Positions 1 through 56,891 of a stretch of 56,891 nt of DNA are shown here, one piece after another. Every line of letters starts with the position of its first letter. Position 1 is the first letter of the stretch. The notes beneath the pieces are model-generated. The model did not search any database and was not told the DNA's origin. It was given only the letters and a program-made list of their open reading frames with translations. Location: positions 1,178,001-1,234,891 of the forward strand of contig CP142732.1 of the NCBI GenBank assembly GCA_036630325.1. Direction: 5' to 3'. The position numbers and the translations under genes are program-made. This DNA is from Vairimorpha necatrix. Its lineage: Eukaryota.

Positions 1-218
1 TTAGATATATAAAAAAAACGAACCTAAGGCAAGTTGACATGCCGAAATCGACAATGACTGATATTAACTCAATATTAATATCTTGGATCAGTTATGTAAT
101 TTTTTGAGAGGACAACAAGAGGGTATTTGGATACTAAAAAGTAGCTTTGCTTGAAAAAATTTAAATCGGAAAGAGCTATATAAGTTTGTTAAAAGATTTG
201 TAAAACAGAAGTAATTAA

Positions 219-2016
219 TGTCACAGTTAGTTGGTGGAACCAGTTAGTAGAGGGAACCCTAAAAAAATTTATAAAAAAAGACCCCCGTGGGAATCGAACT
301 TGGGACTTCTCGAAAGAATACAATCACAATGAACGACTTTTTTGAGACGGTTCTAAATTTGTCCTAATTGTATTATGGGGTATATTTCGAGTAATTTTAT
401 ATAAATTTGGAGGGAAAATAAAAAAAAATAAAATAAACAACTTTTTAAAAATTTATTCGTTATCAAGCAATCTCAGATCTCTAGTGTAAATTTCTTCTAT
501 AATAAGCAATGGATCGGCCTCTTTAGATAATTTTACTTTATTAAATTGAAGTATATCCATTACAATATATACATCGACATCCAAATGTTCGTATAGAGAT
601 AGCCTTCTAGTACTTTGATTATTGTCTAAATATGGTCTTATAAGAACCCTATCTCCCAATTTATATTCATAGAAGTCATTTCTCCACATACTTCTTTCAA
701 TCATTCTATTAGCAGCATTTTGAGTATTAAACCGTGCAGATTCGTGGTAAACTTAATTTAAAAAAAGATTTTCATTGTTTAAAGCATATAGTTCTTCGTA
801 ATTTACGACGTTACTTTCTTCAAAAACAAATTCTTCTCTTCGTTCTTCTTCCTCGTTTTCAACTTCGTTTTTTTTTGCAACCGAATCTATTTTATCAGTG
901 ATTCTAGATTCTTGCATCATGTCTTTAATGGGTTTACCAAAAATTAAACCGAATGTAGTTTGTTTAGTTGTTTTTGCCTTAAGTTGTTATATGCCCAGTT
1001 AACTTCTTGGCGTACTATGGTCCATTGCCCTAAGATATTCTTCGACCTCAGAGTAGATTCAATCATCCATTTTATTGTTTGATTGCATCGTTCTATCTGT
1101 TCTTGTATCCAAGGACATCTAGCTCTTCCTATTACATGTCTTATTTCATACTTTACACATAAATTCACGATATATTGATTAACAAATTCTCTACCGTTGT
1201 CGGTATGAAGTATAAAACAAGATCCAAACGTATTGAATAGTGTTTCAAAGGCATCACGCACACTAATGCCAGTTTTGTCACACAATGGAATCGTCCAACA
1301 GAACTTGGTAAATGAATCCACTACGTTAAGTAACCATTTATATCCATCATTGAGTTTGTGATACAATCGAAGATCAATCAAATCAGCAATTTACCTTTCT
1401 CTATAATATTTTGAAATGATTGGTCTAATAACTGGTCTAGTTATTAGATTTCTTCTTGCTTGACAAATATCACAACTTTTCAAAACTCCTCAGTACTTCG
1501 TTTTGAGTAACGTCGTATACTTTTGATTGTAACAATGGATACAATCTGTCACGCCCAGGATGTCCATTAGAAACATGAATCAGTTTGATGAAATCCAGTT
1601 TGAAACGCTGCTCATTAGTTGTAAAGAATCTCAATGATCTATATTAATCTACTTTAAACCTCACAGTTAGTTCAAAACTTCCATTGTTGTTTTCTTCAAA
1701 CAACATGAAACGTTCAGCTTTTCTTTAAAAATTTTTACGATCAACTTTGTCCAACAACGTTGGTGGCAGCTGACCATATAATAAAAAATTGTAAACTTCT
1801 TGTCTTTTATCATTGTCCATTTTTATTCTCATAACCCCACAAAAAAAAAAAATTATTTACTATAAATTGAAGGATAATTTTACTGTAATTTCTTATAATA
1901 TTTTTTTTCCTTTCTAAGTAAATTTTGTTTTTCTTCAAAAGGTCCTGGGTTCGATCCCCACAGAGCTCTTTTTTAGGGTTCCCTCTACTAACTGGTTCCC
2001 TCTACTAACTGCGACA
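219..2016 (-). mobile_element. Ginger2/TDD-like (KRBA2/SCAND3-type integrase) DNA transposon with TIRs
   Basis: Termini TGT...ACA. Imperfect ~90-bp TIRs (tgtcacagttagttggtggaaccagttagtagagggaaccctaaaaaa versus the reverse complement of 1970-2016). 5-bp TSD ATTAA at 214-218 and 2017-2021. Encodes only an integrase, with no RT or gag. Confidence 0.88.
453..1832 (-). pseudogene. Frameshifted DDE integrase/transposase (HHCC zinc finger, rve core, C-terminal GPY/F-like region)
   Basis: ATG at 1832 preceded by GGGGTT. Motifs HVSNGHPGRD...CDICQ, DLIDL, VDSFTKF, ILHTDNGREF, IERCNQTIK and YKLGDRVLI. Broken into pieces including ORFs 944-1381 and 453-704. Confidence 0.9.
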
Positions 2017-4517
2017 ATTAATAATGTTCTTATATCTTGCTTAATGAAGGAACTTTAGTTAAAATTTGTAAATTTTTATTTTGTAAAAATATAAATTTAT
2101 GCAGTAGACAATGTTTGTTTATACAACCCAGATTATTTACCTCTTAGAGTGGAATATTCTAGGAATTACTACAAAATAAACAAGAATTTAGCTTATTGTA
2201 TTCCCTCTTAGTATGTAGTAAATATTTTTTTTATACCCAAAAAAAAAGATTTCTTAGTACAGCAGAATCTACAAATGTTTAACTTAAAAAAAAGGTAGAC
2301 ACAAAAGCATTGACCACTATAACATTAAATGAAATTAAAATTTCCCCATTGTTTGATAAAAGAACCAATATTTTTAAAGAGAAGTTGTCATGCAATTAAA
2401 AATTTTTACTAAAATTAAAAACTATTGGGCAGCAAATAACATATATTTATGTGAACTGTCTATAATAAAAATTAAAAAACTTAAATACTATGCATGTAAC
2501 GTCATGAAATGGAGTTGTGACTAATATTACAAAAGCGCATTATAAACGAACAATCTAGTTTTATTTATTAAAACAACTTGTCTTGTGTAATAAAAGCCTA
2601 TGAGTTTTTTTTTTTATTTTAATTGAGACTGGCTTGCTAGGAGAAAATGAGAATTAATTAGAGCTGTTTTTGTTTCAGGCCGAAGTAATATTTGATGAGA
2701 AAAATAGGCAAATAGAGTCGCACATATGATTTTACAAGTTTACAAGCATACTTTACATTATCTAACAGATGTTATATCATAACAGCATCAAGCACTGCAG
2801 AAATTAATTGTTAAAAAAATCTAAAAAAATTATTACGCCCTAAAATTTATATGTTTATAAATAAGTACATTATTTAATGATTTCTTTTATAATAAACATT
2901 AAAAAAAAAATGCTTTTAGGATTTAAATTATAATATAAGTAGATTTAAAAATAGAAAAAAAAAATACTTGAAAGAGTTATGATAAAATATTCCTAGTATA
3001 TAAATTATATCTTTTAATGTTTTACTTTATTAATCTTTAGTTGTCTCAATTATAAAATCTTAAAATATTTTCATATACAATGACATCTATAATAAAGAAA
3101 ACTCTTAAAATAAGTGTATTAATGAAATTTCTATATGCAAAATAATTGCAATATTTATAATGGTATTGATTACAAGTTATATTTTAATAATATGTTTTTT
3201 TATTTGAAATTTACCATAATTATAAATGTTTACAACTACATGACTTAAAAGGTTAACGAGGGAACATAATTCATTTATTTGTACCATTTCATACTAATTA
3301 AATCATTATAGATGAAAAAAAAATGTATATATTGTTAAAAGCTATATAATAAGACAAAAAATTAGGCTTTACCTAATGTATTGTTTAAAAACTTGTTTAA
3401 AACACTAAAAATATGTTACTATTTTCACAATAATTAAAAAAATAGAATAGAAATGTAATATATAAATGTATATATATATTAAACATTGATTTTTTATAAG
3501 GCAATCGAAAATAAGATTTATTATTTTGTTTAATAATATGTTTTAACTAAATCTATAAATGACTTTTTCGCTAAATATAAATGTGTATTTCTAAACTCTA
3601 GTTTTTTAAATGCTTTGACTTAAAAACTAAAAGTAAAAGATATGATTTTTTACTTATGTGTAAAAGTGCAGGTAAAGTAGAATAACCCATTTATTATACA
3701 AATTTCTTTTTACACCATTTGATAATTATCTTCAAATTGATGAACGATGTGTGATAAACCTAATCATTTAAACAATATAATAAAATAAGTCTTTGCGCAA
3801 AAAATATATTTAGATACTGTTGTGTCAACAAAAAGATTTAAAAAAAAACAAATTATGAAAATAGAATCGTTTAGTTTGCTTTATAGTCCTGATTATTGAA
3901 AAATCAACATTGTAGATAGTATATAAATGTTTAAAAATATCGTTTTACTGATGTCAAAACATGAGAATATTACTGTTGTAACCCTAGTTACCAATCATTA
4001 CTCTCTATCAGATATCAAACTGTTAAATCTACTACTAATCTAATCCGACAAAGTTGTTACAAACCATTGTTTTGAACACAAATATAAAAAGGAACCTTTT
4101 CAATAACCTTGCAATTTCGTTCAAACTCATCTACTCTTTTAAACAAATACATTCACAGTTTCTAAACTTTAGAGAAAAACAATCTATTTTTTTGTGAATT
4201 TTATTATTTTATTTATAATGTTTATGTATCTAGACGAAAATTGTATAAATTTTTTTTCTATTCTTGTTTGAAAAAGTATTAATGGCCGACTTCAGGTTCA
4301 AATTATGTTCAAATGAAGCTATATTATCTGTATTCGTAATGTAGTAGTCCCCAACATTTTTGCACACTATAAAATTTTTATCGAAATAAAATACATTTTT
4401 CATTTTAACAGTATATAAAAAAGATGAAAGATGTTTTTTTTGTTTTATTATTATAGTAAAAAAAAAAATAAGACTCTCTTGTTACTTTTAAATATTAATT
4501 TTGAAAATGGTTTAATT

Positions 4518-5048
4518 TTAACGTATTATAAAATTTTCGTTAGATTCTAAGATTTCCATTAGTTTATCATATATCCGAGGTTTAAACAAATTAACAACAT
4601 TTCCGTCGATCTGTAGTTTATAACTAATATTAAACAATTTCTTTAGCTTGTTTATTCCCTCTCTAGTAAATTCTGTGCTATCAAAACAGCTGATTAGATA
4701 TAAAATTTTAAAGCTACTCATCGCAATAGAAGCTACGAATCTTTGTTCTGAGGATACGTTATCTAAATTCTCAATTTCACGGTGTAAAAATTTGTCCAAC
4801 CAATTTTTAAAATTTCTAAATTTTAGTAATTCTTTAATTTTTTTGTCTGTACATTTCAATTTCTTAAATGAATATTGAATATCGGGCTGTTGCTTTATAA
4901 AATTTATGAAAGTCTTAGACACAATACTAAAATTTTTACGTTTAAAATTAGCAGGCAATGCTGTAGAATAAGCAATGTTTTCATTGGTTTGAATTTGATC
5001 TGTGTATAAACAAAAATATGATGGAAGAAAGATCAATAAGAAGCGCAT
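4518..5048 (-). CDS. Hypothetical secreted protein (~176 aa)
   Basis: Open frame in very AT-rich DNA. The likely ATG at 5048 (MRFLLIFLPSYFC, signal-peptide-like) is preceded by CCCC, the microsporidian start-proximal motif. Confidence 0.8.
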   Translation of the reverse strand: MRFLLIFLPSYFCLYTDQIQTNENIAYSTALPANFKRKNFSIVSKTFINFIKQQPDIQYSFKKLKCTDKKIKELLKFRNFKNWLDKFLHREIENLDNVSSEQRFVASIAMSSFKILYLISCFDSTEFTREGINKLKKLFNISYKLQIDGNVVNLFKPRIYDKLMEILESNENFIIR

Positions 5049-8000
5049 TATGGGGCACAAAATATTTATATTATTTATAGGTAGTCAATGAATAATGATT
5101 ATGTGTAAAATAAACTTATGTGTTTAAATCACAATTAACTCTATAATTTTCTAAATGTATATTTGATGGATGACTTGTCAAAATAAGTAAAAATATTTTA
5201 CAATGGGGAGACGAAAAAAAGTATATGATTATAAAAATATTAAAGTAAAAAAATTGATTACAAATCTTACGCATACTTTTTTTTCCAATCAGTTTAAAAT
5301 ATTATGAAAAAGAATAATCAATTAAACTACATGTTTGAAATCGTGTGATTTACAATATGATTATTGTCATAACAATGAAATGAAGATTAGTAATGAAGAA
5401 CATAATTAATTAAACATTTTTATCTATTTATGAATTCTTAAATAGTTCTAGTTTTGGATCTGAGACCAATCTGTTCAAATCATTATCAATAATATAACCG
5501 TTTAGTATAGTAAATTATTGACGTATAAAATACAGATGGTAACGATTGTTTTGATTCAATTTAGTTTTCATATAAAAACTGTCATCAAATATATTCGAAA
5601 TTTGACAGGTTGATCGATGATTTATATAACATTTTTAAAACGAAACTTAAATGACATTTAAAAAGAAACTGACATAATGCATAAAAAAAAATTAGAAAAA
5701 TTAAATTAAATAGAATATTACTAAGCGTGCCAGTGAACAGCGTTTACAAGTTATTCGTCAATTTTGATTATAGATCTAAAAAATGTATTAAATGCTTCTT
5801 ACATTACTTTTATTTACAACTTTAAGATTTCGTTTATAGTGTCCAAAGGCGTTTAGTATTTTAAGCATTGTTATGTTTAATTATATTGTTCCAAAGATAT
5901 TTTTTTGAGTTTTTTATTTTAAGTTTATCCAATCATCCTCTAAGTGTAGACCCTAGCTACTTCTGCCTCTCAATACTTTTCACTTTCGGCATTGATACAG
6001 ATTAATAGATTGTAAAGTCCATTTAGTTCAAAAAGCTTTATGTCTGATTCTTAAATTTTTTCGTCTGCTTCTTGATTTATTATATAAACTAAATATGTAT
6101 TCCATAATTTTGCAAATTTTGGAAGAATAAAATTGTTTATTAATATAAAATTTATTTAATGACAGCAAAATTAGCTATAACAATGAGTGGAGTTTAGAAA
6201 ACTTTGCTGTATTGATGTATAATTTTTTATTTTAAAAAGTTACAAAACATATAATTGAAGCCCAACGTAATTTTATTAATTTTAACTAATAGATAAAATA
6301 TAAAATTACAAATGATACTTCATCAAGTTGCTTGTAAGGAGAATTTGGATATTTATATAATTGACAAAATGTATGAAAAATAAAACAAAGGCCAAATTTA
6401 TAGTTATTAGAAAATTTAAATAGTCAGTAATAAACAAGATTACTAAGCTAAATTACCATCGATCTTAAGGAAGTTTTTTTTTTGATTTGTTGAAAAGATT
6501 TTAGATTTAACAAAACATATTATGGTCTAAATCAACATTTACATTATAATAAAAATCTGGATAAAATATAGAATCAAGAATGGACACAAAGAACATATTA
6601 AATTCTGAGCTCACTGTAAATGTAAATGGAACGATTAACGAACTAATGTTATATATTCGATCATACAAATGAGATTAATTATAATTAATTTTCTTTTTTT
6701 GCACAGAAAAAATTTAAATCGATCAAATTTTTATCGACAATGCTTTTATAATAGACTACGGTTCTCCCGCCTTTAAAACATTTTTAGTATCTGATTAATG
6801 TTTGGTTATTAAAGGCAAATATTGTACATTAGTAGTTAAATTACTTAAGCTATGAAAGAATTATAATCTCGGCAGACAATTCAAAGATAATACTTAATAA
6901 AATTGTTACTTTACTTAATTTTTTTTATAAAAGACGAAAACGTGAATAAACTCAATATGAAGATATACAGCAAACACACTTATTCAATATGATAACGTGA
7001 GTTTAAATAAGCGGCCTGGACATCCCATTATAAAATAAATGACGTATTGAAATTTTGTTTTTTGTAAATCATTTTTGCAATTTTAGTTGAATGTATAGTT
7101 AATATTTTGAGCAACAAAAAAAACAAAATTCAACGTAATAACGTTTAAGCCTATTAGAAAATAAATATACAAATGCAGTCAATGCACAATCTCAAATAAT
7201 CATATAGCGCAATGTATAGACATCTATTTTTAAATATGATTCATACCCTAGTCTACATAAAGAATATTATATAACCAAACAAATAATTTTCTTTCTTCAT
7301 ACATCTTCTTTAAACAATGAAGTAGTTAATATCTCCAAATATACTTTTTAAATCTATTTGTAAAGGGTATGATTAAACTTCATAATATCAGGTTAGAGAG
7401 ATTTTTTTAAGATTATATTATATAACCATACTAAATGTTTTTATAACTCTAAAAATTATTAGTTCCGTAACCAAAAAGTCTTTTTTGAAATAAAATTTAT
7501 ATTTTTAAATGTATACATTCTGTACATAATATATATTACGATACATATTTTTTTGCTAAAATATATTCTGATAGCTGTTATATACCTTTGTAGACTACAA
7601 TAATATTATAAATTGTCCACGTCGCAAAAACATAACTTCTTCATTTATATTATGAATGTTTACGCTATCTATAATAGCTCTTGATATTTCCAAAACTTAG
7701 TACACATAATAAAAAAAATTAAGATCTGCGTTTTTGCGCCTATTTATTTTAGATTCAAGTCTGTTCATTTTTGATCTTTTTTTCTTGCTACAATTGAATA
7801 TTTGGGTTGTGATAGATACAATCTTTACACTTTAATTTGTCAAATTTTATACAATTTTATCATATGAGAGGGACATATTGAATATTTAATTTATTTGACT
7901 GCTACAAAAAGACTTTATTTATCACTAGAAAAAATAATTTTTTTTTGAACAAAAAACGTTGACATCAATATTATATCAATCTATTTATTTGATATGTATC

Positions 8001-18979: not shown

Positions 18980-21187
18980 TTACAACATAATTGCTTGACT
19001 AGCAAAGAATCTTACTAAAATATTATGTAGAAGTGAACCAGACTCCTCATTTAAAAATTTCAAAACATAATCTTTATGGGTTTTTAATGAGATCAATTTC
19101 AATCTATTTTCGGTTTTCTTTTTCAAAATTAGATTATCGTGCAGTTCAGCATAAAATAAATTAATTATTGTTTTTGAAAAAAACAATTTTACTTTTTCTT
19201 TAATATTTTTTTTAAAGTTACTTTTTATTTCACCAGTAATTTTTTTTATTAATTTATTTTTATACTCTAATAGTGAGGACTCGTTTATTTGGACATTTTT
19301 GAATTTTTCTAAAAACATTGTTTTAATGGTCTCAATTCCTTTTTGTATATAATTGTTTTCTAGAGCATTTATTTTATTTTTATCAAATAATCTTTTTATA
19401 TTAACGTTTCTGGACTCATGTGTTATTTGATTTAATTTCTTTTCCAATAAAGAATCTTTAATTATACGCATCATTTTAGTTAACTCATGTTCTTTATTTT
19501 TTCTTTTTACTTCTAATTTTATATCGTCTCTAGTATTTTCTATCAACTTTTCTCTTAAAATTTTATTATTGTTCACTACGTCGTTTATATTGAGTTCAAA
19601 ACTGTTAATGACATCTTCGTCTGTGACTCTCTCAAGTTCACACCTATCAAAAAATTCAAGAAAGGATGTTTTCAATCCTGTAAATATCGATATTAGTTTA
19701 CCTGTTGTATTTAAAACTTCATTTTTATATGTTTTTAAATTAAAAATATGCAAACTCACCACTTCTTCCATGATTTCAAGCATACTAATTTTTTTTTCAA
19801 CATTACTTATTTCGAGCTCAGTTTTATTATTTTTGGACAATATTAGATTTCCTATATCTCTAAAAGTTTTATAAAATAGATCATTATCTTTATCATATTC
19901 ATCAATATATTTTTCTGTTATATTTAATAGTGCGATTTTTAATATAAAAAATTCGGTGTTATGTAAATTTGACATTTTTGCTAATATCGTATTAATAAGT
20001 CTGGTTTTTTGACTTGTACTATATTCATTTTTTAGCGTTATTATTGTTAATTCAGATTCTTCAATTATGTTATAATGTAAAAGTAAATGAGCCAGTAAAA
20101 TATTTGGGGCTGATTTGGGTGTTTTAAGAATCAAATCGATTAAATAAAACATTTTATCTTCATGACTTAATAGTTTAGACCACAGTATAACTGCTTTGAT
20201 GGCATTTTCATCAGTTATCATAGTGCCAACTTCTATTATTTTTCTAAAATCTATAAAACATTGCTTGTCTATCAAAAAATTTACATTTTTTCCATATTGT
20301 AAATAATAAAAATATACGCCAGCATTTTGAATAAAAATTATTTTATCCTGTTCTATTTCAATTCTAAAAAATACATATTCATATCTAATTTCAATACTAT
20401 TGAGTGAAATATTTATCGGTATATTATAAAAATATATCTGGAACAAATGATCGTATGGCATTTTATATAATTTGAGCAAAAGCTCAAGTATTTTTTCGTC
20501 ATATTTGGTTTCTAGTTTGATTTTTATATCATTAAAAAAATCAAAATTTTCAATACATAACCGAAATAAATATGAAAATTTTTTTATATTAAAACCAAAT
20601 ATAAAATAGTTTGGAATGTAATCATAATGTTTTATGGTATTTACATTAACGTTATTTTTACAAATATCGCGAATAACATCATCAAAATAATCAGATTCTA
20701 TACAAATATTTTCATAGTATATCTCCCACCCCTTTTTATTTATCTTCCTCTTACAATTTATGTTTTTTATAGTTTCTATAATATTTTTAAAAGTTATAGA
20801 ATAATCAAGACTGATAGAGTCGTTAAGTTGGCTCTCATTGTAAAATAATACTAAAGATGTGTTATTTGTCAAACTTACAAAGTCTTGTATTTTTTCTTCT
20901 ATTTTCGCTATAATTTCATTTAAAGTCTTGTTTTTACAATTTATAATAGAGTTTTTATGGTTGTTATTTTTAGTATCAAAAGAAAGTGTCACTTCTATTA
21001 AGATATTTCCATTCCCGATATTATAATGATCAGTATAAATACCAATACTCGCATAGCGTTTTGTATGATCAAATAACACATAGTCTCGACTTTCTATTTT
21101 GTCAGTGAGAATGTCTTTGATTTTATTATATAAAAACTGATTTGCTTTTGAAAGAACAAATAGAGTAAATATTTCCAAGATATACAT
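18980..21187 (-). CDS. Hypothetical 735-aa secreted, lineage-specific protein with a Lys/Glu-rich helical C-terminus
   Basis: Long intact ORF. N-terminal signal-peptide-like MYILEIFTLFVLSKA. CCT immediately before the ATG. No recognisable domain. Confidence 0.88.
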   Translation of the reverse strand: MYILEIFTLFVLSKANQFLYNKIKDILTDKIESRDYVLFDHTKRYASIGIYTDHYNIGNGNILIEVTLSFDTKNNNHKNSIINCKNKTLNEIIAKIEEKIQDFVSLTNNTSLVLFYNESQLNDSISLDYSITFKNIIETIKNINCKRKINKKGWEIYYENICIESDYFDDVIRDICKNNVNVNTIKHYDYIPNYFIFGFNIKKFSYLFRLCIENFDFFNDIKIKLETKYDEKILELLLKLYKMPYDHLFQIYFYNIPINISLNSIEIRYEYVFFRIEIEQDKIIFIQNAGVYFYYLQYGKNVNFLIDKQCFIDFRKIIEVGTMITDENAIKAVILWSKLLSHEDKMFYLIDLILKTPKSAPNILLAHLLLHYNIIEESELTIITLKNEYSTSQKTRLINTILAKMSNLHNTEFFILKIALLNITEKYIDEYDKDNDLFYKTFRDIGNLILSKNNKTELEISNVEKKISMLEIMEEVVSLHIFNLKTYKNEVLNTTGKLISIFTGLKTSFLEFFDRCELERVTDEDVINSFELNINDVVNNNKILREKLIENTRDDIKLEVKRKNKEHELTKMMRIIKDSLLEKKLNQITHESRNVNIKRLFDKNKINALENNYIQKGIETIKTMFLEKFKNVQINESSLLEYKNKLIKKITGEIKSNFKKNIKEKVKLFFSKTIINLFYAELHDNLILKKKTENRLKLISLKTHKDYVLKFLNEESGSLLHNILVRFFASQAIML

Positions 21188-31474: not shown

Positions 31475-32498
31475 GGCTAAAGTAAGCATTAGCTACAAAA
31501 AATCGATATAGGGTTTTTTTGTTTTTTTTTTGCCCCTTTTTTTAAAAAATGGAGGAAAGAAAATGATGAGGAAGGAACAAAAATAAAAACTAGAATAAAT
31601 ATTTTAATAAAGCTTCAAACACTGGAGTTGTAAAGTTTATTTGGATCATATATCTAAATAAATAAAGTTTAGCGCTATTCGATGATCAGTTTCTATTTGG
31701 TATAGAATGTTTTAGAGATCTCCAATTACCTTCTATGGTATTGTTATGTACTCCTGTATTCGGATTTCTAAATGTAATGTATTATTAACCATATGATGTT
31801 GGTTAAATATTGTATTTAAAGAATGATACGCTCTCCACATATCGCTATATATAATACTGCTTCTACTTACATATTTTAAAAGAAGTTCAGTAAGTGTTCT
31901 TTTGTCTCTTTTCTTAATATATACTACTATGATTCTACGTTGGATGGTACGTTCAACCATTCCAAAACACCAAAATTCTTTTACTAACTTCCCCTATTGT
32001 ATTTATTCTTCCCAATCTTAGTCTCATCAATTTCCACTATAGTATTATCGCCTCCAATAGTCCCTATACTAGATAAATACTTATCATAAAGACTCATTTC
32101 TTTTACTTTTTTTTAGCACGAAAGATATAGAAGGTTTAGTACAACCTAAAACTTGAGAAATGGACTTACGCGAATAACCTAGAATCAATATATTTAGTAT
32201 TTGTAATATTGTACTGTAATTTATCCTAGGATCCTGAAAGAAAGTTCCATTCCAAATTGAAATTGTGTTTTTACATGAGCTCCATGGACACCTAATAAGA
32301 CTTCTTTGCTCCCTCTTTGCTTCATTTTTTTGATTACAGACGCTACATATTTTATTTTGTTTCTTAATTATTAGATCATTATATATGATCTCCAATTCTT
32401 CTCTTGTCCGAATTCTTTCCTCCATTTTTAAAAAAAAGGGGCAAAAAAAAACAAAAAAACCCTATATCGATTTTTTGTAGCTAATGCTTACTTTAGCC
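31475..32498 (-). mobile_element. Merlin DNA transposon, near full length
   Basis: ~86-bp near-perfect TIRs starting GGCTAAAGTAAGC. 8-bp TSD caaataat/aaaataat (7 of 8 match). Encodes an IS1595-family DDE transposase. Confidence 0.92.
31590..32425 (-). pseudogene. Merlin/ISXO2-like (DDE_Tnp_IS1595) transposase, frameshifted
   Basis: N-terminal CSVC...CPWSSC zinc ribbon. Motifs IGGDNTIVEIDETKIGK, FGMVER, IYSDMWRAY, HHMVN and NTIEGNW. Confidence 0.92.
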
Positions 32499-49050: not shown

Positions 49051-51478
49051 ATTTTCAAAGTTCTCTGTTAATAATACACATACGACTGATTAAAATAAGT
49101 AATAGAATTAGAACATACAACGACTTAATCTTTTTTTAAAAATAATATATCAATCGAACATTTAAAATGCAATATATTACACCTACATTATTAAACATGT
49201 AAATATATACAACCTACCGAAAACATATTATTCAATAATGAAAAATTTATAAAAATATTATAAATTTTTATATATTTGTTTTCAAAAGATTCTATATCAT
49301 ATAGGGTTTTAGAAAATTGTAGATTAAAGTTATCAAAAAACTATCAATATTTTAAAAAGTTTTAAAAATGATTTAAATTATTCTTATAGTAAAAAATTAA
49401 ATACTATTTATCGCAAGGAAACATTGGAAAGTTCTTCATATCTAAAAACTCATTTTTTATGCTTAACTTAAGTTTTTAAAATTATTATAAAAATCTAGCA
49501 TGTATAAACCAAATAATATCAAGAAAATTCATAAATGAAAATTTAAGTCTCAAAGAAACAAAAAGACATACGACGAACGAAAAAATAAACATCTATAGAG
49601 GAACACAACAAACGACATTTCATTCTGTTATCATTTATTACAACAGTATTTTGAAATTTTTGGTTATAATCTGTAAAAATATTGTAAAATAAAATACAAA
49701 AAATTATTTCAATGGAAATAATGATAAATAATTAAGAAATAAATCTAATAATGGTCAGAAAACATATTAAATACATTTCAAATGATAAGATAATTAATAT
49801 TCAAACAAATTGTAAATTTATGCACAAAACTAGGCTTGAAATAAATTTCGAATTTCTTCATTTGAATTTTTCTAGTAAATATCATATATTCCACGTATTT
49901 ATTATTAATACTATAATTATAGTAAAAATAAAATTAAAATAAATACAGAATTAGTAATTTTATTGAAAAAAATTTACACTAACCGAAGAATTTAAAAATA
50001 TAAATAAATAAGAACTATAAAAGTTAATAAAAAGTATAAACAAACCCCAATGCAACTAATTAATAGATATTAATATAAATATAAGGATAATATAATGTAA
50101 GAGCATATAAATTAAAAAACCAATTCTTATCTTAAATAATGACAGAAAATAGTTTAATTAAAATTTTTATATGCATAAACCCAATTACATATTAAACATA
50201 GATGCATTTAATGATTTATAATAATTAATAAATTATATTTACTTTAAATATTTATTGAGAAAAAAAAATATAATAAATTGAAAAATTAAATTGTAAATAT
50301 TATAACAAAAAAATCTTTTTGAATTTTTTGAATAAAAATTTTGAATTTTGTAGAATGAAATCAATTTAATGCTTTAATTCAAAACTAAATTTTTTTATAA
50401 TCCAAAAATTGGTTTTATCATAAAAAATACATTTTATGAAAACACATTAAGTAAAACAATTTCATAGAGAATGTTAAGTTATTTTATAACTATCCGCAAT
50501 TTTTTACGCAATAATTTTGACAATACAACATACTGAATCGCAAAAATTTATCAATATTAACTGGTTATCAAATATATCAAGTTAGTTCTCTTCATAATTG
50601 AAATTATATGAAGATCAAGCAAGAAGTAAATCTAACGGTTATAAAAGAAAATATAAAAGTATAAACAAAACATATCTAGGGTATTATGATCACATAATTA
50701 AATACATTCATTTTAGGATATATTTTTCAATTATCCAATATTTTCACACCTCTTATTTTTAAAATATAATATTTTCTACCGTAAAAAATTGAATCCCAAA
50801 GAGAACATAAAAAATAGACACAATATCATTTGTAATTATAAAAGACTTCCTGAACAGTTGGGCAAATACATAGATAAATAAGATTGTACATTAGAAGAAG
50901 CCGCATCCCTATGCAGCAGCCAAGTAGATATAAATATTCATAAAAAAATTCCAAAAACAATTTTTCCTTTTATTTTTTATTTCTATAAAAATAAATTGAA
51001 TCATATTACTATAGATAAATATAGATTACTTTCATTGATCTATTTTGATATCACATAATTTTATACTATATTATTTTAATGTAATTAGTTATTCGTATTG
51101 TATTTTCAAACAAACGCTTGAATCTTGTCCTTAATGTTTCCAAATTATTACGTCCTTTTACTTTCTTAAAATAATGATCCAATTTTTTTATTCAAAGTAA
51201 TTACCATAAGCTTTCCTATAGAGTATAAGCTCCTGTGTCTGTATATATGCGTTAGTACAGCATTCGAGATTTAAGTTATTTTATAATATCCCTAAAATAT
51301 TATTTTTTTTAGTATAATACGAATATTTCGAGTATAAAACATGTTAAAACACAAGAATGATTTTTTTTTACAAGAAATATATTACAAAATAAAGATATTA
51401 TTTCATACTTTAACAATATATTATTTTATAAATTTATTCGCAGAATTACACCAAAAGTACTTTGTGTTTTAATTATAA

Positions 51479-54400
51479 TGTTAAAGTTAAACCTCCTATT
51501 AAATTAATGTATAACATGGCAAACACAAAAGACGAAAGGGTAACAAGTGAGAGCCGTGTTCAAGAAAACAGAAAATTTCTGAAAGAAGCACTCATTAGAA
51601 TGCAGAAGATGTAAAATTGTGACAACGAAGCAGGCGAAACAAGTAAGTACTGAACTTCGAAATTTTATTGTTGATAAAAATTTAATAAGTATGATAAATT
51701 GGAATGATATTATTGATGAAATAGATACATTAGTTGTTGAAGAGAAAGAGAATAAGAACAAGGAAAAAATAAGGAGTAGAGAACTAGAAGATATGGTAGA
51801 GGTTATGAAAGAAAAATCAAAAAGAATATTAAAGGATAACTGACTAGGACTGTAGCAGTGCCAGGAAGAAACTTTCAATATCAAAGACGAGAAGAAAAAC
51901 ATTGTTTTATATGTGGAAGAATTATACATATAGCTAGAGGTTGTATGGAGCGTAAAGGAAGACAGGAAGAGAATAATAAATATAAAAGTGTTAAGTGAAT
52001 TGGCATTCGTGATAATAGTAAAATGAAAATATTAAAAGGAAATGATTTTAAATTGAGACTACCAGTGGAGGTAGAAAGAGAGAACTCAAGAAACAGTTTT
52101 TATGTAAAAAAAACGAAACAAGATAAAAGGGGTAAATATTAATAAATTAGAAGAATTGAGAGGAAAATTTCCAGAAGTATTAGGAAATGACGAAGAGTAA
52201 ATAAAATACTTAACAGGGGGAAAATATTCTATCAAAACAAGGAGTGAAAGTAGTTATAAAAAGACAAAATATTTCTTATAATTCGAGAAAAGTTAGAAAA
52301 GTATATTAATTTAAAAGAAAGTAGAGGTATTTTCAGAAGGACAAAGAGCGAATGAAGAAGCCCAATAAGTACTATAGAAAAACTAAATGGTGAAGTACAA
52401 TTGAGAAGCAATTTGATGGCTTCAAACGAACTGGTTTAAAAAGATCCGTAAGAATTGCCATTGATTAGAGACATTATTAATGCAACGCTAGGTTCTAAAG
52501 TATTTATGGTTATAGACCTAAAGGAAGGATTCTATCATATAGAAATTGAGAAAGTTCAAATGCATAAGACGGCTTTTGAGATAAATGTTAGAGTTTACGA
52601 ATGGAATAGCATGGTAATGAGATTTAAAAATGCCCTCATATTATGCAAAAAGTGATGAACGGAGTTTTAGATAAGTTTAGAAGCAAGAGTGTTGAGGTGT
52701 ACATGGATGATATTATTATTCATGCAAGAGATAGTAATATACACGAAAATTTATTAAAACAAGTAATTCGAAAATTTAACGAATTGTTATTAAAAGAAAC
52801 TTAAAAAAAATACAATATGAAGGAGAAGTAAAACTACTTGGAGTATCAATTAACGGAGAAGACATTACACCTAACAAAATTAAAAAGCAAGAGACATTAA
52901 AATTCAGAAGGCCCAACAACATAAAAGATCTTAGAAGATTTGGGGGACTGGCAGGCTGGTTAAGAGATTTTATTTCTCATTATGCTTATCGGTCAGCGCT
53001 TCTTACAGAAGAACTAAAATAAGATGTTAAATGGGGATGGTCCGAAGATATGGAAAAAGCTTTTATGGATATCAAAGAGTGGTTTATAGGATGTGAAAAA
53101 ATTAAAAACAGAGGATAGTTATAAAATATTTAGAGTAAGAACGGATGCATGCGATACGGGAATTTGAGCCATACTTCTGCAAGAAGACAAAGAAAATAGG
53201 TGGATTCCGATACAATGGGCATAAAAAATGATAACACTAACAGATAAAAAGTATACGATAGTGAAAAAGAATTGTTGGCAGCGATTTTTGGAATAATGAA
53301 ATTTAATCAGATTTGTGAGGACGAAATTAGATTAATGACAGAACATTAAGCACTGGCCGAGATTAGAAACAACCCGTTTTTTAATAATAACAGAATTAAT
53401 AGATGAATAGAATATTTACAGAGTTCGATTTTACTATTGAATATGTAAAAGGAGAATTGATCACGTATGTGGATGCTCTTAGTAGACTATTTGAAAATAA
53501 CGAAGTAATTGAAAAAGGCGAAAGATAGAAACAGACCTAAAAACAGATGAAAGTGAAAGAAATAATCCGCATGTTAAAAGAGAAGGTAAAAAATATTTGA
53601 AGTTCTCAACAGGAGAAATTAAAGAAATACTACACGAAGAACCATGATAGACAAAAATTCGTAGAGTTCATGAGGAATTAAAGGATCGAGAAGTTAAAGA
53701 TTCACATTATAAGATTTAACAAAAACGATACCGGTCAGGTATGAAGGACCAGATGACCACAACACAAAAAAATTGTGAAGTATGTAGCATTAATAACAGA
53801 AACAAGACCTGAGGTTGCAATTTTGTAATAACATTCAAGAAATTAGAAAAAGTAGTTTAGAAGTAATGGATATTGCAGAAAAAGAAAGATACGTGCTATA
53901 AGGGATTGACTACTTCGAGATAAAGAGTATGGGGCGTAAAGATAAAAAATAAGGGAAGTGATGTTATTACGAAAATTTTAGAAAAATGGATAAAGGAAGA
54001 TGGATTGCCAGATGAATATATTACGGATAACTGTAAGGAATTTGTCAGAGGGAAGTTTGTAACTTGGTGTAAATAAAACGGAATTATGCAATGGAAAGTA
54101 TGTTTAGATCCTCATAGGAGTAATGGAAGAATAGAGCGATGTATTTGAACAATAAGGGAATCGATGATCAAATAAAAAGAAGGAAACACGGAGGAAAAAC
54201 TAGAACAAGCTGTAAGAACCTATAATAACACTCTACACACAGCGATAAAATGTACACAAATGGAAGCATGGAAGGACCAAGGAGAAGAAGTTTTTATGAA
54301 AATTGATGAAAAGGGTGTGTATGCAGGAAATTTTAAACAAAGGTATAGAGAAAAATTTGAAGTAGATCACGCTGTGAGAATCCAAGATAAAAAACTTGGG

Positions 54401-54627
54401 TAAATAGATGAAATGTACGAAAGGAAGATTTACAAATGTTGATAAAAGAATGGGAAAGTGTGAGAATGATTCTTAATTTGTAAGTACTGATAGCAAAAGA
54501 TACATTAAGAAAGACATTATGACCTAGAATTTTATAAAAATGATAAATTAGAAGCTTGTAACCTGAGACTACCCGTTTGAAGGAGAAATGTTAGGGTTGA
54601 ACTTTCCTATTAAATAAATGTATAACA
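51479..54627 (+). mobile_element. Compact Ty3/Gypsy LTR retrotransposon with 38/39-bp LTRs (degenerate copy)
   Basis: Terminal direct repeats TGTTAAAGTTAAACCTCCTATTAAATTAATGTATAACA (51479-51516) and TGTTAGGGTTGAACTTTCCTATTAAATAAATGTATAACA (54589-54627). TSD TATAA on both sides. PPT gaaggagaaa. Gag knuckle CFICGRIIHIARGC, RT (IDLKEGFYH, KTAF, VYMDDI), RNase H (RTDAC), integrase (CEVC, ITDN, SNGRIER). Confidence 0.92.
51516..54560 (+). pseudogene. gag-pol polyprotein with many stops and frameshifts (gag, RT, RNase H, integrase)
   Basis: ATG at 51516 overlaps the last base of the 5' LTR. Domain order RT-RH-IN is that of Ty3/Gypsy. Confidence 0.9.
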
Positions 54628-54789
54628 TATAATCATTAATCTTAAAAAAAAATAATTGAATAAAAAAAATAGTTAGATAAATTTTTATTAAAAATTTTCT
54701 TTTTTTATTTATTTTAGTTACATATTGATTTAACTGATAAATTTTTTAAACAAAAGATTGAGGAAGTTTTGAAGGTAAAAGCTTACGTG

Positions 54790-56891
54790 TTAGTTAGGTT
54801 AGGTAGGTAGGTAGGTTAGGTAGGTTAGGTAGGTAGGTTAGGTAGGTTAGGTAGGTTAGGTAGGTTAGGTAGGTAGTAGGTTAGGTAGGTTAGGTAGGTT
54901 AGGTAGGTTAGGTAGGTTAGAGGTTAGGTTAGGTTAGGTAGGTAGGTAGGTTAGGTAGGTTAGGTAGGTTAGGTTAGGTAGGTTAGGTAGGTAGGTTAGG
55001 TAGGTAGGTTAGGTAGGGTAGGTTAGGTAGGTTAGGTAGGTTAGGTAGGTTAGGTTAGGTAGGTTAGGTAGGTAGGTAGGTAGGGTAGGTAGGTTAGGTT
55101 AGGTAGGTAGTAGGTTAGGTAGGTAGGTAAGGTAGGTTAGGTAGGTAGGGTAGGTAGGTTAGGTTAGGTAGGTAGTAGGGTTAGGTAGGTTAGGTTAGGT
55201 AGGTTAGGTAGGTAGGTTAGGTAGGTAGGTAGGTTAGGTAGGTTAGGTAGGTAGGTAGGTTAGGTAGGTTAGGTAGGTAGGTTAGGTAGGTAGGTTAGGT
55301 AGGTTAGGTTAGGTTAGGTTAGGTTAGGTAGGTTAGGTAGGTAGGTTAGGTAGGTTAGGTTAGGTTAGGTTAGGTAGGTTAGGTTAGGTAGGTTAGGTTA
55401 GGTAGGTAGGTTAGGTAGGGTAGGTTAGGTAGGTAGGTAGGTAGGTAGGTAGGTTAGGTAGGTAGGTTAGGTTAGGTAGGTAGGTTAGGTAGGTAGGTAG
55501 GTAGGTAGGTAGGTTAGGTTAGGTAGGTTAGGTAGGTTAGGTAGGTTAGGTAGGTTAGGTAGGTTAGGTAGGTTAGGTAGGTTAGGTAGGTAGGTAGGTA
55601 GGTTAGGTAGGTTAGGTAGGTAGGTAGGTTAGGTTAGGTAGGTTAGGTAGGTTAGGTAGGTTAGGTAGGTTAGGTAGGTTAGGTAGGTAGGTTAGGTTAG
55701 GTAGGTTAGGTAGGTTAGGTTAGGTAGGTAGGTTAGGTAGGTTAGGTAGGTTAGGTTAGGTTAGGTAGGTTAGGTAGGTTAGGTAGGTTAGGTAGGTAGG
55801 TAGGTTAGGTTAGGTAGGTTAGGTAGGTTAGGTAGGTAGGTTAGGTAGGTAGGTAGGTAGGTTAGGTAGGTTAGGTAGGTAGGTAGGTAGGTTAGGTAGG
55901 TAGGTTAGGTAGGTTAGGTAGGTTAGGTAGGTAGGTTAGGTAGGTAGGTTAGGTAGGTTAGGTAGGTTAGGTAGGTTAGGTAGGTTAGGTAGGTTAGGTA
56001 GGTTAGGTAGGTAGGTAGGTTAGGTAGGTAGGTTAGGTAGGTAGGTAGGTAGGTAGGTTAGGTAGGTAGGTTAGGTAGGTAGGTAGGTAGGTAGGTAGGT
56101 TAGGTAGGTTAGGTAGGTAGGTTAGGTAGGTAGGTTAGGTAGGTTAGGTTAGGTTAGGTAGGTTAGGTAGGTTAGGTAGGTAGGTTAGGTAGGTTAGGTA
56201 GGTAGGTAGGTTAGGTAGGTTAGGTAGGTAGGTAGGTTAGGTAGGTAGGTAGGTAGGTAGGTTAGGTAGGTAGGTTAGGTTAGGTAGGTTAGGTAGGTTA
56301 GGTAGGTAGGTTAGGTAGGTAGGTAGGTAGGTTAGGTAGGTAGGTAGGTTAGGTAGGTTAGGTTAGGTAGGTAGGTTAGGTAGGTTAGGTTAGGTAGGTA
56401 GGTTAGGTTAGGTAGGTAGGTAGGTTAGGTTAGGTAGGTTAGGTAGGTTAGGTAGGTAGGTTAGGTAGGTAGGTTAGGTAGGTTAGGTAGGTTAGGTAGG
56501 TTAGGTTAGGTAGGTTAGGTAGGTAGGTTAGGTAGGTTAGGTAGGTAGGTTAGGTAGGTAGGTAGGTAGGTAGGTTAGGTAGGTTAGGTAGGTTAGGTAG
56601 GTAGGTTAGGTAGGTGGTAGGTAGGTTAGGTTAGGTAGGTAGGTTAGGTAGGTAGGTTAGGTAGGTTAGGTTAGGTTAGGTAGGTTAGGTAGGTAGGTTA
56701 GGTAGGTTAGGTAGGTAGGTAGGTTAGGTAGGTTAGGTAGGTAGGTAGGTAGGTTAGGTAGGTTAGGTAGGTTAGGTAGGTTAGGTAGGTTAGGTAGGTA
56801 GGTAGGTTAGGTAGGTTAGGTAGGTAGGTTAGGTAGGTAGGTTAGGTAGGTTAGGTAGGTTAGGTAGGTAGGTAGGTTAGGTAGGTAGGTA
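54790..56891 (+). repeat. Telomere: irregular composite (TAGG)/(TTAGG) array
   Basis: About 2.1 kb of G-rich-strand repeats running to the end of the window. Confidence 0.97.

Follow-up and report, generated by a model that had tools for sequence, protein, structure and literature searches.

The window analysed here is a stretch of 56,891 nucleotides from Vairimorpha necatrix (assembly GCA_036630325.1, contig CP142732.1, positions 1,178,001 to 1,234,891 of the forward strand). A 3149-bp element with the organization of a long terminal repeat (LTR) retrotransposon is found at 51479-54627; all coordinates are those of the window, and all features of the element lie on the + strand. It is bounded by direct repeats of 38 and 39 bp possessing TG...CA ends, namely the 5′ LTR (TGTTA...ATAACA; 51479-51516), the ends and core of which match the consensus of an Anncaliia algerae element called retro L, and the 3′ LTR (TGTTA...ATAACA; 54589-54627). 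Direct reading of the sequence reveals a 5-bp target-site duplication (TSD), TATAA, in identical copies at 51474-51478 and 54628-54632. The 5′ LTR contains the pentanucleotide CCTCC (51492-51496), an AT-rich core ATTAAATTAAT (51498-51508), and an in-frame ATG (51507-51509; M-Y-N-M-A...) whose first two nucleotides close this core. The 3′ LTR carries ATTAAA (54609-54614) and AATAAA (54613-54618).

A further start codon (51516-51518) has as its A the final base of the 5′ LTR, which is followed directly by TGGCA (junction: ATAACATGGCA). The adjoining sequence TGGCAAACAC (51517-51526) resembles a primer-binding site (PBS) and, together with the ATG at 51516, codes for Met-Ala-Asn-Thr. No transfer RNA (tRNA) genes are found within the window. 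At the opposite end, a polypurine tract, GAAGGAGAAA (54579-54588), adjoins the 3′ LTR, and just 5′ of this tract is a conserved box, GAGACTACCCGTTT (54565-54578). The original prediction had placed the 38/39-bp LTRs, the TATAA duplication, and the purine tract at these same positions, and had described a gag ATG overlapping the final A of the 5′ LTR; reading of the sequence confirms both statements. It had also concluded that no leader is left, which is not entirely accurate, as the LTR itself contains another in-frame ATG (51507-51509).

Global alignment of the LTR pair gives 33 identical columns of 39, with three A/G, one C/T, and one T/A substitution and one indel, so that the copies differ by 15%. 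Their 22-base core, CCTATTAAATWAATGTATAACA, is found at only two sites in the 56.9-kb window when up to three mismatches are allowed, these being the two LTRs; none of 100 shuffles produced two core matches. As a further control, random 38-mers were searched for a partner with seven or fewer errors 2.5-4 kb downstream, which was found for one of 300. The probability of an identical flanking 5-mer arising by chance is 0.003 at the composition of the window. A blastn comparison of the element with the window returned the LTR-LTR match alone; the flanks are dissimilar, and similarity ends where the repeats end. No other copy of the element was found in the window by blastn, or by tblastn with the three frames, and the core search revealed no solo LTR there.

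The interior consists of decayed coding sequence. A gag-like region (51516-52265) has a coiled N-terminus and a single CCHC zinc knuckle (CFICGRIIHIARGC; 51903-51944), the latter recognized in the frame translation and present as zf-CCHC in relatives, followed by a short linker; no capsid family was detected. Downstream are found the reverse transcriptase (RT; 52281-52840), which is spread over three frames (RVT_1 in frames 0 and 1; also tblastn) and has its YMDD motif at ~52700, and RNase H (53084-53421; RT_RNaseH and RT_RNaseH_2). The integrase (53594-54526; rve, and tblastn with residues 684-992 of protein P0164) includes a zinc-binding part, a DDE core (~53924-54088), and a C-terminal part closed by a conserved HYDL (54515-54526). 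The Pfam order across the three frames is RVT_1, RT_RNaseH/RT_RNaseH_2, rve, and the same RT-RNase H-integrase arrangement, together with Integrase_H2C2, occurs in intact relatives.

Each full frame of the element is interrupted by 82-92 stops. By tblastn, 51516-54512 is nevertheless colinear with residues 1-992 of P0164, an intact relative of 1002 amino acid residues, the gag-to-RT stretch (51516-52652) corresponding to residues 1-366; along the path of homology the stops number 29, and the frame changes at least seven times. This colinearity implies that the open reading frame (ORF) originally occupied everything between the end of the 5′ LTR and a point ~62 nt short of the 3′ LTR, and an ORF filling the interior leaves no room inside for longer LTRs. 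The copy is thus structurally whole and functionally dead, and the word "complete" in the original prediction applies to its structure and not to its coding capacity. The extent of decay fits the 15% divergence of the LTR copies and an old insertion. An alternative genetic code was considered as the source of the stops and rejected: ORF counts give no sign of one beyond the effect of AT-richness, and the frame changes exclude it. A word-indexed protein search using the best open stretch returned 45 candidates, none at E ≤ 0.001.

Frame 0 was searched against a full library of 1.84 billion representative proteins, revealing 1436 proteins at E ≤ 0.001, the best of which was P0001 (1090 residues; E 2e-64). 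A search with P0002 scored 7998 candidates, 232 of them at E ≤ 1e-20, and listed 120; the first 61 listed (E ≤ 1.3e-90) are here termed close relatives. Among the matches listed in this search, those named are from V. necatrix, Nosema granulosis, Enteropsectra breve, and Nematocida ausubeli. The closest N-terminus is that of N. granulosis P0201, which starts MTYMANTRDERE compared to MYNMANTKDERV in the window; its residues 1-29 are 65% identical to the translation of 51507-51593, and the RT identity of the named relatives reaches 64%. Two of the close relatives, P0171 and P0203, are labelled as originating from bacterial metagenome-assembled genomes (Clostridium sp. and Bacteroidales), and are probably misbinned eukaryotic contigs. 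Scans of viral and metagenomic collections were uninformative on the ends of the element: IMG/VR yielded 12 distant loci (22-28% identity) of retrovirus or caulimovirus size, and JGI metagenomes two loci (32-33% identity), of which L013 is cut by the contig end and L014 has ORFs along the whole contig and no direct repeat of at least 20 bp.

The close relatives resemble the window element at both ends of the ORF. Among those of at least 985 residues, 21 of 25 have M-A or M-G at the very start or behind a leader of 3-6 residues. In every one of the 14 with a short leader the residue preceding this Met is H, Y, N, or D, i.e., one specified by a NAY codon, as expected if the junction ...NACA|TGG is conserved. 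The four without this pattern comprise one with Y-M-A after a longer leader, one with N-M-V, and two with nothing of the kind. The ORF terminates 2-25 residues past a HYDLK-type motif in the 31 relatives in which this motif is recognizable, and at least six relatives read on through ..ET(T)RL..GG into ML, DV, or C. Such ..ETTRL..GG tails correspond, in translation, to the box followed by the purine tract and the opening bases of an LTR that begins with TGT. Contig sizes point indirectly in the same direction. Of the close relatives of this length, 17 derive from Logan contigs. For 16 of them the contig measures 3035-3159 bp and the sequence outside the ORF amounts to only 25-100 nt, whereas the remaining contig, of 3283 bp, has 163 nt outside. 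Contigs of these sizes agree with the 3149 bp of the window element and the 3127 bp of retro L, and have no space for a pair of conventional LTRs.

A published counterpart is found in Supplementary Table S1 of Parisot et al. 2014 (PMC4202319), which lists 97 LTR-retrotransposon consensi of A. algerae, most of them with LTRs of 105-272 bp; these microsporidian consensi were placed by the authors in the Ty3/gypsy group. The entry "Aalg retro L" has an LTR of 50 bp, an ORF at 32-3049, and a total length of 3127 bp, and the LTRs of retro S and CK are listed at 45 and 73 bp, respectively. As printed, the retro L consensus starts with TGTTA and contains ATTAAATAAAT, then ACCC and an in-frame ATG. 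Its LTR ends ...GTTAACA, after which TGGCGTCA follows directly, a second ATG straddling the end and specifying Met-Ala (junction: TTAACATGGCG); the corresponding junction in retro S and CK is ...GACT|TGGCGTCAGCC. The 3′ LTR of retro L is preceded by GAGACTAACCGTCTT, situated after the stop codon, and then by AGGAGNNGGA in the position of the window element's purine tract (all PMC4202319).

The window element therefore has in common with retro L, as printed, the TGTTA...TAACA ends, the core (ATTAAAT(T/A)AAT in the window), the ATG within the LTR, the ...AACA|TGGC junction coding for Met-Ala, the box GAGACTAmCCGTyT and purine tract before the 3′ LTR, a single ORF of ~1000 codons, and a total length of 3149 compared to 3127 bp. 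The statement in the original prediction that any PBS must lie within coding sequence is upheld, the TGGC junction that specifies Met-Ala being retained in retro L and, to judge from their N-termini, in the protein relatives. The box is located after the stop codon in the printed retro L consensus and is translated in several relatives, and so appears to be conserved at the nucleotide level. It may represent a cis element, for example a second tRNA-binding part. Ty3 possesses a bipartite primer site with such a second part.

No aspartic protease was detected by Pfam in the frames of the window. The four closest full-length relatives give the same result: P0001, P0002, and P0006 possess zf-CCHC, RVT_1, RNase H, Integrase_H2C2, and rve, and P0007 the same set without zf-CCHC, and none of the four shows a protease by Pfam. 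Likewise, no protease family is recorded for any of the 61 close relatives. When 26 full-length members are aligned, 40-90 variable, charged residues separate the knuckle from a conserved pre-RT motif, with no conserved D-S/T-G among them; the window has ~120 codons in this region (51945-52265) and no D-S/T-G motif. More distant relatives do carry the enzyme, a protease being found in 13 of the 20 scanned and, weakly, also in P0013 and P0030, and the available text on Nosema bombycis credits nearly all of its elements with gag, protease, RT, RNase H, and integrase (PMC2474625). Since no protease was found, the element departs from Ty3/gypsy in one defining feature, while its TG...CA ends, TSD, purine tract, and domain order agree with that type.

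Taken together, these findings indicate that 51479-54627 is very probably a dead but structurally whole insertion of an ultra-compact LTR retrotransposon, belonging to a Ty3/gypsy-derived microsporidian lineage of the retro L kind, with LTRs that are intrinsically ~35-50 bp long and with relatives annotated in Vairimorpha and Nosema. The lineage is built around one ORF of ~1000 codons, encoding a nucleocapsid-like gag, RT, RNase H, and integrase and no recognizable protease, which takes up nearly all of the 3.0-3.2 kb. The short LTRs are a family trait and not the result of damage, because the ends of retro L, the contig sizes of the relatives, and their N-termini share this design. The repeat controls and the independent relatives bear out the claim that these are true integration ends, and neither of the two observations named beforehand as speaking against that claim, relatives with long LTRs and homology continuing past the TSDs, was made. 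The original prediction of a minimal-LTR lineage is likewise sustained insofar as relatives share the trait; it is not unprecedented, as LTRs of 50 and 45 bp already appear in the 2014 table (PMC4202319). Assignment to Ty3/Gypsy holds for the TG...CA ends, TSD, purine tract, and domain order, but as neither the element nor its closest relatives show a protease, it is not a canonical member. The roles in transcription and polyadenylation of the CC motif and of ATTAAA/AATAAA, which the original prediction saw packed with the att sites into <40 bp, are putative.

Several points weigh against this interpretation. The ends of retro S, as printed, repeat over ~80 nt rather than the 45 listed, and the LTR lengths of the table must consequently be regarded as approximate. 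The PBS-like stretch has only TGGC and scattered bases in common with the printed sequence of retro L. C-rich motifs just upstream of start codons are a reported expression signal in Nosema (PMC11592040); the CCTCC/TTTCC of the LTR, 10 nt from the ATG, differs from the published motif TTTTTTTACCCC, and the Nosema motif TTTTTTWACCC is not enriched in the window (7 matches compared to 11 expected). The assembler may merge two LTRs into one, in which case the bound that the Logan contigs set on a single LTR is ~120 nt and not ≤50. Finally, within the source genome the comparison of ends is confined to the single copy present in the window.

The proposed mechanism is that of ordinary LTR-retrotransposon replication with all cis signals compressed. 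The C-rich and AT-rich block of the 5′ LTR would act as a very short promoter of the microsporidian type, transcription starting a few bases before the ATG in the LTR. The start is placed there because CCTCC/TTTCC and the AT-rich block precede this ATG, and because the printed retro L sequence has AAATACCC directly before its own. The AATAAA of the 3′ LTR (54613-54618) would direct 3′-end formation near the end of the LTR; it would be used in the 3′ copy only, because the AATAAA of the 5′ copy lies upstream of the start. R plus U5 would thus span ~10-20 nt. A tRNA ending in ...GCCA would prime on TGGC(R), which would double as codons 1-2 (Met-Ala), and the plus strand would be initiated at the purine tract, located after the ORF end or, in some relatives, overlapping it. 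Integrase would then join the TG...CA ends with a 5-bp stagger. The present copy presumably inserted at a distance of 161 bp from the telomere repeats in the remote past and has decayed since.

A bolder proposal may be advanced, toward which we are inclined to be somewhat skeptical. This would be the most reduced LTR retrotransposon still encoding RT, RNase H, and integrase: 3.0-3.2 kb in length, with an ORF that starts in the 5′ LTR and in some members ends in the 3′ LTR, no protease, LTRs of 35-50 bp, one AT-rich block providing a promoter element when in the 5′ LTR and the poly(A) signal when in the 3′ LTR, an R of ~15 nt or less, and a primer site equivalent to codons 1-2. Such elements would have been recently active in several Nosema and Vairimorpha species, as many intact ORFs suggest, and would be systematically missed by LTR finders.

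The promoter function ascribed to the LTR is open to a different explanation, in which the LTRs serve integration and strand transfer only and transcription is the result of read-through from flanking promoters. In 38 bp there is hardly space for a U3, the LTR does not match the published Nosema motif and the window is not enriched in it, and microsporidian read-through is mentioned for A. locustae in the available text of PMC2474625. We consider this explanation unlikely, because ATTAAATAAAT and a nearby in-frame ATG are common to the window and the printed A. algerae consensus while the rest of the LTR is different, and because in A. algerae the block is followed by CCC directly before the ATG. 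Furthermore, a start located upstream would bring flanking sequence into the strong-stop DNA, and clean ends would not be regenerated.

The missing protease raises the question of whether the lineage is non-autonomous, obtaining this enzyme in trans from protease-bearing gypsy families of ~4 kb, with the small LTRs reflecting a parasitic life. The results for the four closest relatives scanned and for the records of the 61 close relatives are congruent with this idea, as are the linker of the 26 members, which lacks a conserved D-S/T-G, the protease carried by 13 of 20 distant relatives, and the presence of a second integrase-bearing remnant in the same window. Nothing indicates, however, that processing is required, and RT, RNase H, and integrase are all intact in many relatives; the idea is accordingly judged improbable.

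It is far less credible that the 38/39-bp repeats are the deletion stumps of conventional LTRs of at least 100 bp. The copy is old and heavily mutated and there is an indel between its repeats, yet both stumps would need to have retained the same TG...CA ends with a matching TSD outside and a PBS-like TGG and purine tract directly inside. In addition, the interior homology to intact polyproteins spans the first to the last codon, and the same short design is displayed by the printed A. algerae consensus and the ~3.1-kb contigs of the relatives. A chance match around an unrelated pol remnant can be dismissed: short AT-rich matches are common in a window of 75% A+T, but the controls rule this out (two core matches in 0/100 shuffles; partners for 1/300 random 38-mers), and the TSD, purine tract, TG...CA ends, and homology to the printed ends of retro L all coincide.

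An ultra-compact element with intrinsically short LTRs, as favored here, is present in the supplementary table and file of 2014, and the lineage has thus been catalogued and is undescribed. In the available main text of PMC4202319 there is no match for "protease" or "retro L", and "short" occurs only in an unrelated sense. Within the literature on microsporidian retrotransposons, taken without supplements other than that of PMC4202319, no text was found on LTR length or a missing protease, and nothing concerning microsporidia was found in the literature on very short LTRs; in plants, a paper that mentions SMART elements calls an LTR of 194 bp "very short" (PMC3701649). The window element is a new family and has the shortest LTRs documented here (38/39 bp); combined with what the proteins show, it points to a lineage-wide design.

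These results bear on the practical lower bound of LTR content, ~40 bp having apparently sufficed to provide the integration ends, to allow strand transfer, and probably to hold the signals for transcription. They also suggest that the compaction of microsporidian genomes reaches their mobile elements, as seen in the overlap of ORF and LTR, the primer site within codons, and the lack of a protease. The usual minimum LTR length set in structure-based finders is ~100 bp. Under this setting such elements go unreported, and the retrotransposon content of microsporidia is likely undercounted and insertion ages affected. The lineage offers a tractable system in which to ask how short R can be, and whether a gag-pol fusion is able to function without a protease of its own.

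The window is gene-poor, having a GC content of 25% and three ORFs of at least 150 residues that start with ATG. The element is separated by 161 bp from a 2.1-kb telomeric array (54789-56891, +) in which 273 TAGG (57%), 191 TTAGG (40%), and five TAGGG units are interspersed. A composite TAGG/TTAGG telomere has been described in Nosema muscidifuracis and, according to the available text of that paper, in no other microsporidian; TAGG there accounts for 75.3% of units, compared to 57% in the window (PMC11592040). The base composition, this telomere type, and the origin of the nearest named proteins in V. necatrix and N. granulosis mark the window as that of a Nosema-like microsporidian. In two public sequencing runs, 223 and 333 contig pieces were located on the stretch at a likeness of at least 80% (shares 0.14 and 0.10), which speaks for a multicopy family with many diverged members; no RNA run was listed for the stretch. 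Run X1 provides no cover over 51000-51507, run X2 covers the flank with other repeats, and none of the loose contig ends listed is found at 51479 or 54627. In run X2, the sequence on the 5′ side of the element (51000-51281) recurs in pieces ~90% alike, which places the element among other subtelomeric repeats.

The second integrase remnant is a 148-codon open stretch at 947-1390 (-; rve, E 4e-13), and no RT or RNase H was found in the minus frames of 1-6000 around it. It represents either the decayed remains of a retroelement from another family or, as in the "rve" consensi listed for A. algerae, an element with an integrase only. A fragment of a Merlin-type transposase is located at 31736-31993 (-; DDE_Tnp_IS1595, E 3e-10), the Merlin superfamily being abundant in microsporidia. 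The only long ORF in the window (18980-21187, -; 735 residues) has no Pfam match; it has TTTTTTACAGCCT before its ATG, a single case of resemblance to the T-run/C-rich upstream motif of Nosema.

By comparison with known systems, the window element differs from retro L in its LTR length (38/39 compared to 50 bp), in the rest of the LTR sequence, in its host genus, and in being a dead copy. At the DNA level, none of five family-specific 12-14-mers of the window is present in the available A. algerae consensus file, and a sixth sequence, a 14-mer, matched only the YMDD region of another A. algerae element. The nearest named proteins, among the matches listed, are V. necatrix "endonuclease" and "reverse transcriptase" and N. 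granulosis "Transposon Tf2-9 polyprotein" and similar entries (P0002, P0185, P0190, P0155, P0195, P0201, and P0205), which possess the same domain set under a generic pol annotation. The other single-polyprotein Ty3/gypsy families described from microsporidia, including most A. algerae consensi and those of N. bombycis, have a fused gag-pol ORF that often starts in the 5′ LTR, and share with the window element microsporidian hosts and the RT-RNase H-integrase order. Most A. algerae consensi are ~3.6-4.3 kb in length with LTRs of 105-272 bp, whereas the lineage of the window element is ~1 kb shorter and has no detected protease.

Ty3 of Saccharomyces cerevisiae, the type member of the Metaviridae, likewise possesses TG...CA LTRs, a 5-bp duplication, a purine tract, a CCHC nucleocapsid, and the order RT-RNase H-integrase, and its tRNA-type PBS starts with TGG, as does the PBS-like stretch of the window element. 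Its LTRs are ~340 bp long and it has separate, overlapping GAG3 and POL3 frames and a protease within ~5.4 kb; the LTRs of the window element are one-ninth of this length, its single ORF overlaps the LTRs, and no protease is seen. The TRIM and SMART elements of plants are also very small LTR elements, but they are non-coding and non-autonomous and their LTRs measure at least 100 bp. The lineage represented in the window, by contrast, encodes RT, RNase H, and integrase.

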